Shown: piece after piece, positions 50,338 to 53,846 of the stretch
Numbering within the stretch: position 1 is the first letter of the stretch
Layout: each line of letters starts with the position of its first letter
Origin: Escherichia coli
GTDB taxonomy: Bacteria; Pseudomonadota; Gammaproteobacteria; Enterobacterales; Enterobacteriaceae
Assembly: GCF_003334405.1 (NCBI RefSeq)
Contig: NZ_QOWM01000003.1
Length of the DNA stretch: 64,000 nt
Reading direction: 5' to 3' (one strand)
Made by a program: the position numbers and the translations under genes
Notes under the pieces: model-generated
The model's input: the letters and a program-made list of their open reading frames with translations, nothing else
Told to the model about the DNA's origin: nothing
Database searches by the model: none

Positions 50338-50745
50338 TTAGTTGCCCAGACCGCGACCGGCGTCTTTCTCTTCGATTAACTCAATTTTGTAACCGTCCGG
50401 ATCTTCCACAAACGCGATAACCGTAGTACCGCCTTTTACCGGACCCGCTTCACGGGTCACGTTACCCCCGTTTTGACGGATTTTTTCGCACGCTTCAGCG
50501 GCGTTATCTACGCTAAGCGCGATGTGACCATAAGCAGTGCCGAGTTCGTATTTATCCACGCCCCAGTTGTAGGTCAGTTCAATCACCGCTTCTTCGGTTT
50601 CCGGGCCGTAGCCAACAAACGCCAGTGAGTATTTGTATTCCGGGTTTTCGCTGGTACGCAGCAGTTTCATGCCCAGCACTTTGGTATAAAAATCGATGGA
50701 GCGTTGCAAATCGCCAACGCGCAGCATGGTATGAAGAAGACGCAT
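50338..50745 (-). CDS. gloA: glyoxalase I (lactoylglutathione lyase)
   Basis: 135-aa [32 protein letters not shown]... recognised as GloA. Confidence 0.95.
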
Positions 50746-50825
50746 CTTTTTATCCTCAAAATGGCTAACAGATTCAAAATGTTGTTTTAGTATAGCGGCG
50801 GCTTTACGCCGCTCGCAATGTTGGA

Positions 50826-51923
50826 TTACAACGTCGGGTAATCGGTATAGCCTTCCGCGCCGCCACCGTAGAAACTTTCGGCACGCTGTGGGTTAAGCTC
50901 AGCTTTGCGCTGCAAGCGGGCGACCAGATCCGGGTTCGCAATCCAGTCACGACCAAATGCCACCGCATCAATTAACCCTTTGCCGATCAGCGTTTCAGCT
51001 TTTTCTACTGTGTATGCACCTGCGCCGATAATCGGACCGTGGAAACGGGCGCGTACTTTTTCGCGGAACGCATCAGTATACGGTTCACCCCCCGCCCAAT
51101 CTGGTTCTGACATATGCAGATAAGCAATGCCGCGTTTACCCAGTTGTTCAATCAGATACAGTGCATCGGCTTCTTCATTCGGGCCGTTATCTGTGTTCTG
51201 GAAAGTACCGATTGGTGAAACGCGAATGCCAATGCGATCGGCACCCCATTCTTCAATCCCGGCATCGACCACTTCCAGTACCAAACGTGCGCGATTTTCC
51301 ACGCTGCCGCCGTACTGATCGGTACGATGGTTTGAAGAAGGAGAAAGGAACTGATGCAGCAAATAACCGTGAGCAGAGTGGAGCTCTACCAGATCAAAAC
51401 CGGCTTCACGCGCGTTAGCAATGGCCTGACGGAAATCATTGACGATACCTGGAATCTCTTCCAGTTCAAGCGCACGCGGCATGGATGTTTCAACACGGAT
51501 CGCCTGACCATTTTCATCGCGCAGAGAAGTACGTGTTCCCGCGCTAAGTGCTGAAGGCGCTACCGGTGCCTGACCGCCAGGTTGCAGGCTGGCGTGAGAA
51601 ATGCGTCCGGTGTGCCACAGCTGCATGGCCATATGACCATTTTCAGCATGAACGCCAGCGGTGATTTTTTTCCATGCGGCAATTTGCTCCGGACTATGGA
51701 TGCCAGGCGCACCTGCATATCCTTTTGCCTGGGCAGAAATTTGCGTGGCTTCACTAATAATCAAACCGGCACTGGCACGTTGGCGATAGTATTCCGCCAT
51801 CAACGGGGTAGGAATGTCACCCGGTTCAATACTGCGCAGACGCGTCAGCGGTGCCATAAAAATACGGTTTGCCGCCGTGATCGCGCCCACTTTCAGTGGG
51901 GAATACAGTTTTTCAGATGACAT
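50826..51923 (-). CDS. nemA: N-ethylmaleimide reductase (Old Yellow Enzyme family, FMN)
   Basis: 365-aa ORF of the OYE family. Confidence 0.93.
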
Positions 51924-51959
51924 AAAGGCTCCCGGTCGTCTGGTGATAAAAAATGCCTG

Positions 51960-52559
51960 CTAAACGGCAGGCGTCGCAATAATGTTTTTTACATGGGCCA
52001 GCGCGTTTTCCAGTGGCTCGAAACTGCGCGAAATTTTGGCCTGCAGATTCGCGCCAAGCCACAGTGCGTAAAGCACTTGTGCCTGTTGCAGCGGTTCGCC
52101 ACAAAAGGTTAAACAATGGTTCTCACGGCCATTTTCCAGCGCCTGAGAGAGCAGGGCGATCACGCCGCGAGCACCTTTATCCATCGCGCTGCGCATATCT
52201 TCTGACAGATCGCACACTTCGGCAGAGAGTTTTACTGTCAGGCAACCACTGATGGTTCCATGTTGGCAAAACTGGTTCAGTGTTTGCTGGTAATAAGCCA
52301 GTATGCGGTCGCGGTAGTTACCTTCGCCGGATTGCAGCAACTCAGTCAGTCGCTGGTGATATGCGGCGTAATGACGCTCAAGCATGGCAACGCCAAACGC
52401 TTCTTTAGAGCGAAAGTAGTGATAGAAGGACCCTTTCGGCACTTCAGCGGTTTTTAGTAATTCGCTTAGCCCCATCCCGGTGAATCCACGTTGCAGGCAA
52501 AGTTGCTCGCCCGTCGCCAGGAGATGTTCGCGAGTATCATGTTCGGTGTGTTTGTTCAT
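51960..52559 (-). CDS. nemR: TetR-family electrophile-sensing repressor NemR
   Basis: 199-aa ORF with N-terminal TetR HTH; first gene of nemR-nemA-gloA. Confidence 0.92.
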   Translation of the reverse strand: MNKHTEHDTREHLLATGEQLCLQRGFTGMGLSELLKTAEVPKGSFYHYFRSKEAFGVAMLERHYAAYHQRLTELLQSGEGNYRDRILAYYQQTLNQFCQHGTISGCLTVKLSAEVCDLSEDMRSAMDKGARGVIALLSQALENGRENHCLTFCGEPLQQAQVLYALWLGANLQAKISRSFEPLENALAHVKNIIATPAV

Positions 52560-52573
52560 GCGTTGGAGTGTAG

Positions 52574-52589
52574 TAGACCAGTCGGTCTA
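52574..52589. promoter_or_regulatory. NemR box (operator) at the nemR promoter
   Basis: Perfect 16-bp palindrome tagaccagtcggtcta (TAGACC-N4-GGTCTA), 15 bp upstream of the nemR start. Confidence 0.75.
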
Positions 52590-52661
52590 GTGCAAGCAAA
52601 GTTGCTACTTTGGACATTAACAGCTTCAATAATGGTAATAATCTTATCTGAGGAGGGCGAA

Positions 52662-52901
52662 GTGGCGGAGCAATTAGAGTTCTTTCCCGTCCAGAGCCCG
52701 TGCCGGGGAATTTGCCAGTCTGACGAACGCGGGTTTTGTCGCGGCTGTTTTCGTAGTCGTGATGAGCGTTTTAACTGGAATAAAATGAGCGATGGCGAAA
52801 AACAAGAGGTGCTGCGCCTTTGTCGGCAGCGATTAATGCGCAAATTACGCGCAAATAAGCCAGCGTCATCAGACGAACCGGAGCAACCATCACTCTTTTG
52901 A
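52662..52901 (+). CDS. ydhL: small Cys-rich DUF1289-like protein
   Basis: ORF track 52491..52901; trimmed to the GTG at 52662 behind GAGGAG (79 aa, VAEQLEFFPVQSPCRGICQSDERGFCRGCF...). Confidence 0.65.
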   Translation: MAEQLEFFPVQSPCRGICQSDERGFCRGCFRSRDERFNWNKMSDGEKQEVLRLCRQRLMRKLRANKPASSDEPEQPSLF

Positions 52902-52949: not shown

Positions 52950-53846
52950 ATGGTTCAGCGTATTACTATTGCGCCGCAAGGCCCGGAGTTTTCCCGTTTT
53001 GTGATGGGCTACTGGCGATTGATGGACTGGAATATGTCCGCCCGCCAGCTGGTCAGTTTTATTGAAGAGCATCTGGATCTCGGCGTGACCACCGTGGACC
53101 ATGCTGATATTTATGGTGGCTATCAGTGCGAAGCGGCGTTTGGCGAGGCACTGAAACTGGCACCTCACCTGCGTGAACGGATGGAAATCGTCAGTAAATG
53201 CGGTATCGCGACGACCGCGCGTGAAGAAAACGTCATTGGTCATTACATCACTGACCGCGATCACATCATTAAGAGCGCCGAACAGTCGCTAATTAATCTC
53301 GCGACCGATCATCTGGATTTGCTGTTAATCCACCGACCAGACCCGTTAATGGATGCCGATGAAGTGGCGGACGCGTTCAAACATCTGCATCAGAGCGGCA
53401 AAGTGCGTCATTTTGGCGTATCGAACTTTACGCCTGCGCAATTTGCCCTGTTGCAATCACGTCTGCCGTTTACCCTTGCCACTAATCAGGTGGAAATATC
53501 CCCGGTGCATCAGCCGTTACTGCTGGATGGCACGCTCGACCAACTACAACAACTGCGTGTTCGTCCGATGGCGTGGTCCTGCCTTGGTGGTGGTCGTCTG
53601 TTTAATGATGATTATTTCCAGCCGCTGCGTGATGAACTGGCTGTGGTGGCAGAGGAGTTAAACGCGGGCTCGATTGAACAGGTGGTTTACGCCTGGGTAT
53701 TACGTTTACCATCGCAGCCGCTGCCAATTATCGGTTCAGGTAAAATTGAGCGCGTACGGGCAGCTGTCGAAGCAGAAACACTGAAAATGACCCGTCAACA
53801 ATGGTTTCGTATCCGTAAAGCGGCACTGGGGTACGACGTACCGTAA
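52950..53846 (+). CDS. ydhF: aldo-keto reductase family oxidoreductase
   Basis: 298-aa ORF, AKR family. Confidence 0.88.
   Translation: MVQRITIAPQGPEFSRFVMGYWRLMDWNMSARQLVSFIEEHLDLGVTTVDHADIYGGYQCEAAFGEALKLAPHLRERMEIVSKCGIATTAREENVIGHYITDRDHIIKSAEQSLINLATDHLDLLLIHRPDPLMDADEVADAFKHLHQSGKVRHFGVSNFTPAQFALLQSRLPFTLATNQVEISPVHQPLLLDGTLDQLQQLRVRPMAWSCLGGGRLFNDDYFQPLRDELAVVAEELNAGSIEQVVYAWVLRLPSQPLPIIGSGKIERVRAAVEAETLKMTRQQWFRIRKAALGYDVP

Follow-up and report, generated by a model that had tools for sequence, protein, structure and literature searches.

The inverted repeat between nemR and ydhL in the Escherichia coli window analysed here (the window being the whole stretch of 64,000 nucleotides) is very probably the known NemR operator of the autoregulated nemR-nemA-gloA operon, which acts on the DNA by promoter occlusion. 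It was found that the repeat lies in the promoter spacer upstream of the mapped nemR start, is conserved together with nemR in 37 orthologues, is hit by resistance mutations and matches the operator of the related regulator AcuR. For these reasons, the name of NemR site upstream of nemR, which the first-pass annotation had given to it, can be kept. The site, the repressor, the inducers and the leaderless transcript are all already in the literature. What is gained is a base-resolution map of two back-to-back promoters, one of which has the single operator in its spacer.

The inverted repeat in the nemR-ydhL gap

The sequence TAGACCAGTCGGTCTA was located by look-up on the top strand, at window positions 52574-52589. 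It lies in a 102-bp gap between the ATG of nemR (52559, minus strand) and the GTG of ydhL (52662, plus strand), and its earlier placement upstream of nemR, in a gap shared with the divergent ydhL, was thereby confirmed. A 1-kb query around the box has a match in every complete E. coli genome searched (5426 of 5426); the RefSeq annotation gives nemR, ydhL and ydhF. The operator and the genes of the nemR operon are as follows.

52574..52589, no strand assigned: NemR operator O1 (the NemR box), assigned from the sequence, conservation in 37 orthologues, the honey mutation, likeness to the AcuR operator and binding in the literature
51960..52559, minus strand: nemR, TetR-family repressor of 199 amino acids (RefSeq annotation)
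50826..51923, minus strand: nemA, N-ethylmaleimide reductase, co-transcribed with nemR (RefSeq; NF007899, 763 bits; operon literature)
50338..50745, minus strand: gloA, glyoxalase I (RefSeq, profile match), expressed by read-through from the nemR promoter and from a promoter of its own
50789-50818, minus strand: the gloA promoter, TTGCGA-18-TATACT (promoter scan; transcription start with a 37-nt UTR, 14 reads)

On the window strand, the box reads TAGACC-AGTC-GGTCTA, an inverted repeat whose two arms (6+6 bp) flank a 4-bp centre without symmetry. Reverse-complemented, the box is TAGACCGACTGGTCTA; the nemR strand thus has TAGACC-GACT-GGTCTA. The sequence had previously been described as a perfect 16-bp NemR palindrome. 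The sequence and its position hold, but the perfection does not: 12 of the 16 positions are symmetric since the central AGTC is not self-complementary, and complementarity is perfect in the 6-nt arms only. An inverted-repeat scan also returned a longer, imperfect version of the repeat with 11-nt arms (82%). Exact TAGACCnnnnGGTCTA occurs a single time in the window, 100 shuffled versions of the window gave no copy, and about 0.02 perfect 6-4-6 inverted repeats are expected in the 102-nt spacer (87 positions × 4^-6). With up to 2 mismatches, 0.87 matches to the box pattern are expected per window; thus, weight was put only on the exact match.

The nemR promoter and its leaderless start

In the tables of transcription starts by Kim et al. 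2012 (PMC3415461), the E. coli nemR start (1724047, 15 reads) is identical with the gene start, with a 5′UTR of 0, and the nemR orthologue of K. pneumoniae (ydhM) also has a 5′UTR of 0 (20 reads). In window coordinates the E. coli start is position 52559 on the minus strand, the A of the ATG. Thus, relative to the nemR start the box covers −30 to −15, and the elements of the nemR promoter were placed as follows.

52559..52559, minus strand: nemR transcription start (published table, 15 reads; the −10-to-ATG distance is 6-8 nt in 31 of 37 orthologues)
52590..52595, minus strand: nemR promoter −35, TTGCAC, abutting the box (TTG is invariant in 37 orthologues; fits the mapped start)
52567..52572, minus strand: nemR promoter −10, TACACT, 1 nt after the box and 7 nt before the start (TAnnnT is invariant, at positions 1, 2 and 6)

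The nemR strand thus reads TTGCAC (52595-52590), TAGACCGACTGGTCTA, C, TACACT (52572-52567), CCAACGC and ATG, and the 17-bp promoter spacer consists in full of the box and one further base. The nemR-nemA(-gloA) mRNA is leaderless and is without a Shine-Dalgarno sequence. A generic sigma-70 scan of positions 52400-52800 called no promoter. This result was dropped since the transcription start data and conservation indicate both the nemR and the ydhL promoter, which are below the thresholds of the scan: the nemR hexamers have 3/6 and 4/6, and the ydhL −10 is without an A at position 2.

Function of the box

According to a review, NemR is the repressor of nemRA that is inactivated by electrophiles and HOCl, and transcription reads through into gloA. 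Deletion of nemR raises nemA 15-fold and gloA 5-fold. Electrophiles reduce the affinity of NemR for DNA, and a glyoxal-resistance mutation lies in the NemR-binding site (review). In genomic SELEX, nemR was the single NemR target, which gives nemRA-gloA as the regulon. The window holds the same locus, sequence and repressor as the NemR box of E. coli nemRA-gloA (Umezawa et al. 2008; Lee et al. 2013; Gray et al. 2013). That system is autoregulated, responds to electrophiles and HOCl and has a single target, and the site in the window is no different. TAGACC-n4-GGTCTA is present in the nemR promoter of a nemR-nemA locus, it is conserved together with nemR at a fixed promoter position in 37 of 37 orthologues, and mutations of the site with a resistance phenotype are known from the literature (the honey G→A and the glyoxal-resistant mutant).

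How might the box work? A NemR dimer of the TetR family would bind the two TAGACC/GGTCTA half-sites. Since the box and one base make up the whole 17-bp spacer, NemR bound there would fill the spacer and would presumably keep sigma-70 RNA polymerase off the promoter by steric occlusion. N-ethylmaleimide, methylglyoxal, quinones or hypochlorite modify NemR cysteines, upon which NemR leaves the DNA; according to reviews and a summary of the SELEX work, the binding of NemR and its relief by electrophiles or HOCl are published. This release would then give a leaderless mRNA beginning at the A of the nemR AUG, which carries nemA and, by read-through, gloA. ydhL-ydhF would be transcribed from a weak promoter of their own, 78 bp away, whose core elements are clear of the box. 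Umezawa and colleagues are said to have named this sequence the NemR box in 2008, and secondary sources indicate that NemR probably protects exactly these 16 bp.

Laboratory evolution on honey bears on the site directly. The same intergenic G→A was reported in four independently evolved isolates resistant to methylglyoxal honey. With Manuka and Medihone (Leptospermum honeys rich in methylglyoxal), every isolate had a nemR mutation or that G→A, and the isolates other than the four had mutations in the nemR coding sequence. It was found that this G→A is at window position 52578; the base is the second G within the arm GGTCTA and is −19 of nemR and −84 of ydhL. The base sits in the promoter spacer, outside the −35 and the −10; an effect on promoter strength rather than on the operator is formally still an alternative.

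Conservation of the box

A NemR search against one genome per species gave 80 loci ranging from 96% to 39% identity. Each of the 37 Enterobacterales nemR orthologues has the box, with a score of 10-12 of 12 and at 11-15 nt upstream of the start codon, or 23 nt in four Serratia loci. The layout of cTTGcat, TAGACCnnnnGGTCTA, n, TAnnnT and then ATG is fixed in the 37 orthologues. The information content is 2.0 bits at TTG, AGAC, GTC and TA..T, whereas the flanking positions carry about 0 bits. The four bases at the centre of the box are variable (GACT, GAAT, GATT, AATC, GATC and others). The box is retained at nemR whether ydhL is adjacent, 0.9-1.9 kb off or absent. In most Enterobacterales, the flanks of the box lengthen the site to ATTAGACC...GGTCTATTA, which is nearly the AcuR operator. 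The homologues at 39-48% identity, from beta-, gamma- and alpha-proteobacteria, have a 15-bp version, TAGACGACYGGTCTA, followed by a −10-like hexamer and then by 6-8 nt to the ATG. Thus, leaderless expression under an occluding operator seems to be a trait of the whole subfamily.

Comparison with AcuR

The best NCBIfam relatives of NemR are CurR and AcuR, both below the curated cut-offs. In Rhodobacter sphaeroides, 5′RACE placed the start of the AcuR transcript exactly on the AUG (Sullivan et al. 2011, PMC3017554). The AcuR operator, TAATAGAC/n6/GTCTATTA, overlaps the promoter, and its point mutants are constitutive; translation of the regulator gene, which is leaderless, is lower than that of the genes downstream (PMC3017554). 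NemR, of the TetR family too, is a homologue by its match to the NCBIfam model for AcuR (E = 1.3e-34), but its 119 bits compare with an equivalog cut-off of 247, so that NemR is a relative and not an AcuR. The two systems have in common the operator core TAGAC-n6-GTCTA, the overlap of the operator with the promoter between the −35 and the −10, and a leaderless start on the regulator AUG without a Shine-Dalgarno sequence, which was found for nemR as well. In both, the operon begins with the regulator gene, and next comes a reductase by which an electrophile is detoxified; the AcuR inducer, acrylate, is itself an electrophile. In contrast, the downstream genes of NemR encode an OYE reductase and a glyoxalase, whereas those in the operon acuR-acuI-dddL encode AcuI and DddL. 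Furthermore, NemR is inactivated via cysteine modification according to the literature, whereas acrylate is the co-inducer of AcuR (PMC3017554). By analogy with AcuR, the leaderless nemR may be translated poorly relative to nemA.

The divergent ydhL promoter

ydhL had been noted earlier as encoding a small Cys-rich protein. Indeed, the protein has 79 amino acids, with cysteines at C14-x3-C18-x7-C26-x2-C29 plus C54, and matches Pfam DUF1289 with E = 3e-19. ydhF is probably in an operon with ydhL, and their adjacency is kept in nearly all ydhL-carrying loci. A search for close homologues of ydhL found them in Enterobacterales only. The features on this side of the gap are listed below.

52662..52901, plus strand: ydhL, Cys-rich DUF1289 protein with a GTG start (RefSeq; Pfam match)
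52950..53846, plus strand: ydhF, aldo/keto reductase (RefSeq, profile match)
52637..52637, plus strand: ydhL transcription start (2 reads, weak alone; fits the conserved promoter motif)
52602..52607, plus strand: ydhL promoter −35, TTGCTA (TTGCnn with a fixed 17-nt spacer in 28 of 29 ydhL loci; fits the transcription start)
52625..52630, plus strand: ydhL promoter −10, TTCAAT (28 of 29 loci have (C)TTCA(A/C)T; the hexamer falls exactly at −12 to −7 relative to the transcription start)

The ydhL start is given at 1723969 with a 5′UTR of 25 and 2 reads (Kim et al. 2012, PMC3415461), and the 25-nt leader holds the Shine-Dalgarno sequence GAGGAGG (52650-52656). The ydhL strand reads TTGCTA, 17 nt, TTCAAT, 6 nt and +1 at 52637. 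The whole motif, TTGCnn-17-(C)TTCA(A/C)T, stands 25-32 nt before the start codon in 28 of the 29 ydhL-bearing loci. Because of this exact 17-nt spacing and the mapped start, a promoter of the sigma-70 type is preferred. Two other sigma factors were considered for the motif and rejected: sigma-54, since the conserved GC lacks a GG 12 nt before it, and sigma-E, since the GGAACTT of Yersinia is 22 nt from TCAAT, which is too far. A 16-nt direct repeat (52492-52507 and 52591-52606) is seen in Escherichia only. The IS1 insertion that was inspected (H1) lies between ydhL and ydhF, outside the nemR/ydhL gap.

Does the box also control ydhL-ydhF?

The first-pass annotation had asked whether ydhL-ydhF is co-regulated with nemRA-gloA. 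On this reading the box is a bidirectional operator, where its occupancy by NemR or the firing of the nemR promoter also controls the back-to-back ydhL-ydhF promoter, and both the DUF1289 protein and the aldo/keto reductase would join the electrophile response. I regard this as unlikely. In Escherichia and Citrobacter, the −35 hexamers of nemR and ydhL are 6 bp apart and the transcription starts are 78 bp apart; thus, the upstream contacts of RNA polymerase must overlap, and coupling through supercoiling is possible. Against this, the box occupies −63 to −48 relative to the ydhL start; it is 12 bp upstream of the ydhL −35 and lies outside the −35, spacer and −10. The TetR/tetO system, which is the model that the first-pass annotation implied, also has a TetR-family repressor, a divergent neighbour and a short common intergenic region. 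The tet operators, however, overlap both promoters, whereas the NemR box overlaps the nemR promoter only. Moreover, the NemR-regulated nemA and gloA lie downstream in the repressor's own operon and not across the divergent gap.

Comparative genomics points the same way. Nine loci, in Enterobacter, Cedecea, Erwinia, Mangrovibacter and Yersinia, have ydhL at 0.9-1.9 kb from nemR and still retain the ydhL motif, and each of these loci has one box, at nemR; no box of at least 11/12 was found near ydhL or anywhere else in them. In the two such loci that were inspected (L009 and L030), the translation of the intervening gene looks like a phosphoethanolamine transferase. Serratia, Providencia and Budvicia have kept the box and nemRA and have no ydhL within 3 kb upstream; in a further locus (L026), the 667 nt of sequence upstream contained no ydhL. 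Where nemR and ydhL are adjacent, the box and the ydhL −35 are separated by 9, 12, 20, 23, 30-31, 37-38, 53 or 91 bp, without helical phasing. Thus, neither the linkage to the divergent promoter nor the spacing is conserved as it is expected for a tet-like arrangement. The neighbours of five distant DUF1289 genes are unrelated (YbjQ, formyltransferase and SDR, AraC and EamA, and UPF0227 across the five places), and no TetR-family or OYE gene is beside them.

Functional data can be cited on both sides. An OYE reductase, a glyoxalase and an aldo/keto reductase would fit one theme, and in an ASKA screen overexpressed ydhL was a hit for both H2O2 and HOCl resistance, as was gloA. Genomic SELEX, on the other hand, gave NemR no target besides its own operon. 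In the accessible part of a methylglyoxal RNA polymerase ChIP-chip study, the induced region covers 60% of ydhL in one experiment. This overlap is within the spread expected from the nemR promoter at that resolution; the region lies over nemR-nemA, ydhF is absent among the regions listed in that part, and in the second experiment the region begins inside the intergenic region. In the portion of a UPEC HOCl RNA-seq study that is available, the log2 changes are 3.0 for nemR, 2.7 for nemA, 1.0 for gloA and about 1 for c2040, an ORF between sodC and nemR that may be ydhL, ydhF or strain-specific. c2040 thus changes in the same direction as nemR, but about 2-fold compared with 8-fold for nemR, in a data set where well over a thousand genes change. 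No paper found in the literature search names ydhF and nemA together, and no report of ydhL or ydhF expression in a nemR mutant was found.

Taken together, co-regulation of ydhL-ydhF with nemRA-gloA is unsupported by promoter geometry, comparative genomics, SELEX and ChIP-chip, because the box is outside the core of the ydhL promoter, the ydhL promoter is conserved apart from nemR and the spacing is variable. ydhL therefore appears to be independent of the NemR box. If bidirectional control is present, it would be confined to the genera whose −35 hexamers are a few bp apart. A weaker form, where NemR occupancy or a burst of divergent transcription modestly tunes ydhL-ydhF as a lineage-specific coupling in Escherichia and Citrobacter, is also unlikely. 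If true, it would tie the DUF1289 protein and the aldo/keto reductase to the electrophile and bleach response in Escherichia and Citrobacter only.

RutR and other readings of the site

Is the site mainly a target of RutR, the regulator of pyrimidine catabolism, and not a NemR operator? The RutR box is likewise a 16-bp TetR-family site with GACC/GGTC cores, and it differs in the outer bases (TTGACC, compared with TAGACC in the NemR box). The RutR consensus, TTGACCAnnTGGTCAA, is matched by the NemR box at 11 of 14 specified positions. The exact 16-mer also occurs in the text of the RutR ChIP-chip paper. RutR has been reported to bind upstream of nemRA, nemR is listed in the RutR regulon, and a review states that RutR binds the same region too, so that NemR is not the sole protein there. 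However, the review describes this binding as without a role in nemRA-gloA regulation, with nemA expression unchanged in a rutR mutant. The box also co-varies with nemR across taxa, including homologues far beyond rutR-type regulation, and selection by methylglyoxal strikes nemR and the box interchangeably. A site that serves mainly RutR is thus very improbable, and operator function for NemR is the reading followed here.

A chance inverted repeat, or an RNA hairpin serving as a terminator or attenuator with no protein-binding role, can in my view be regarded as refuted by the conservation and the transcription start positions: the arms are short (6 nt) and about one match per window is expected with 2 mismatches, but the exact box never arose in the shuffled windows, its position is fixed in the 37 orthologues, no T-run was found after it, and it is upstream of both mapped transcription starts, therefore in neither mRNA, and must act as DNA.

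A second operator-like palindrome before nemA

I found that a second operator-like palindrome, designated O2, is present in the nemR-nemA spacer in 35 of 35 non-Escherichia Enterobacterales loci, with the sequence TAG(A/T)CGAC(C/T)GGTCTA. It is of the 15-bp operator type seen in the distant NemR homologues. The spacer is 44-90 nt long in the non-Escherichia loci, and O2 lies 10-24 nt before the nemA ATG, adjoining the Shine-Dalgarno sequence in most loci. It comes 3′ of a hairpin and a T-run that trail the nemR stop codon. O2 is not known to have been described. Its conservation suggests that other genera may repress nemA via two sites, with O2 acting as a second operator, a roadblock or part of a loop. 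E. coli is apparently atypical, as every other Enterobacterales genus examined has O2 before nemA. This could matter when the E. coli model of NemR, or NemR-based HOCl biosensors, are moved to Klebsiella, Enterobacter, Yersinia or Serratia. The corresponding features of the window are as follows.

51955..51972, minus strand: terminator-like hairpin GCCTGC-CGTTTA-GCAGGC, followed by ATTTTTTAT and spanning the nemR stop codon (scan)
51932..51942, minus strand: O2 remnant, left half, CAGACGACCGG (comparison with 35 non-Escherichia loci; the right arm is missing)

In other genera, too, the nemR stop codon is followed by a comparable hairpin remnant with a T-run. The right arm of O2 has been lost both in the window and in L002, the other Escherichia locus, where the spacer is 35-36 nt long, and the remnant CAGACGACCGG is joined directly to the GAG of the ribosome-binding site. 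Loss of this half of O2 in Escherichia agrees with SELEX in E. coli K-12, where NemR had a single target. A minor nemA 5′ end (3 reads), 19 nt before the gene, maps at position 51942 (PMC3415461).

Operator-like sites and transcript ends in nemR-nemA-gloA

Across the nemR-nemA spacers of loci L004-L036, L039 and L068, a second operator-like palindrome (O2), TAG(A/T)CGAC(C/T)GGTCTA, was found 10-24 nt 5′ of the nemA ATG in all 35 of the 35 non-Escherichia Enterobacterales loci. Distant NemR-like regulators also have this type of 15-bp palindrome in front of them. In Escherichia (the window and locus L002), the left part of O2 alone has been kept, and about 9 nt have been deleted. As only this part is left, the E. 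coli NemR system may be atypical in having a single operator. The remnant, a hairpin next to it and the gloA promoter lie in the window as follows.

51932-51942, minus strand: O2 remnant, left part CAGACGACCGG
51955-51972, minus strand: terminator-like hairpin spanning the nemR stop codon, GCCTGC-CGTTTA-GCAGGC followed by ATTTTTTAT
50789-50818, minus strand: gloA promoter, TTGCGA-18-TATACT, with the transcription start site (TSS) at about 50782

The hairpin sits within an operon whose co-transcription is reported. In other genera, a comparable hairpin remnant with a T-run was found 3′ of nemR. The hairpin may be a partial terminator setting the nemR:nemA ratio. At the other end of the gene, the nemR mRNA is leaderless in the published maps of E. 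coli and K. pneumoniae, the TSS (52559, minus strand) being the A of the ATG. No Shine-Dalgarno sequence was found for nemR, and nemA has GGGAG. The gap of 6-8 nt between the -10 element and the nemR ATG is conserved from Enterobacterales through the Burkholderia and Vibrio homologues. Further downstream, a gloA TSS has been published with a leader of 37 nt and 14 reads; this promoter of its own confirms the dual-promoter arrangement known from the literature.

The ydhL promoter and the nemR-ydhL intergenic region

On the opposite strand, a ydhL promoter was found in 28 of the 29 ydhL loci, with a spacer of exactly 17 nt throughout these 28.

52602-52637, plus strand: ydhL promoter to TSS

Its -10 element, (C)TTCAAT, is strongly conserved and unusual in that it is without the usual A at position 2. 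Because the published table lists just 2 reads for the ydhL TSS in E. coli (Kim et al., 2012; PMC3415461), the promoter is weak or condition-specific. Its -35 hexamer is overlapped by a perfect 6-4-6 inverted repeat, CAAAGT-TGCT-ACTTTG (52597-52612), the second such repeat in the region. In the alignment of sequences 5′ of ydhL, the other genera shown lack the repeat, and so it may be a product of chance or an Escherichia-specific site. A direct repeat, TGCA(G/A)GCAAAGTTGCT, was also found to be confined to Escherichia. Its two copies of 16 nt, identical at 15 of the 16 positions, lie in nemR codons 18-23 (52492-52507) and across both -35 hexamers of the intergenic region (52591-52606). The expected number of such pairs in 400 nt is about 1e-3.

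A further possible source of transcription is the sigma-54 site CTGGTTCAGTGTTTGCT published from ChIP (52272-52288, plus strand), which lies inside nemR in the antisense direction and is directed at ydhL, located 363 bp downstream according to the ChIP paper. From this site, a condition-specific antisense or ydhL transcript could run through the NemR box, the inverted repeat inside the nemR promoter.

Insertions and gene order around ydhL

In some genomes, ydhL is parted from nemR. At the Escherichia albertii locus (L003), ydhL is cut off from both nemR and the promoter it normally has by an insertion of about 120 nt, which lies some 120 nt upstream of the gene; the ydhL promoter motif was not found at this locus, where the gap is 222 nt. 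The inserted sequence resembles an ERIC/IRU-type repeat. At the two loci whose ORFs were listed, those of Enterobacter cloacae (L009) and Yersinia artesiana (L030), a gene of 547-585 aa lies between ydhL and nemR.

L009, 1217-2974, same direction as nemR: intervening ORF
L030, 1242-2885, same direction as nemR: intervening ORF

I judged the product to be phosphoethanolamine-transferase-like on its translated sequence. By gap size alone, a ydhL-nemR distance of about 1.8-1.9 kb was also found at L008, L025, L027, L028, L031 and L032.

The presumed ydhL-ydhF operon is itself split in E. coli strain Z1323CEC0011, in which an IS1 lies between the two genes (L087, 1263-1960). IS1 is likewise present within this 1-kb stretch around the nemR-ydhL region in a second genome (H2), where two DUF1289 genes are annotated.

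As for YdhL itself, overexpression of its gene (ydhL, 52662-52901) was a hit in an ASKA screen for resistance to H2O2 and also to HOCl. The essentiality call for ydhL was made by TraDIS only, and in a pcnB (poly(A) polymerase) mutant its transcript ranks within the top five for down-regulation.
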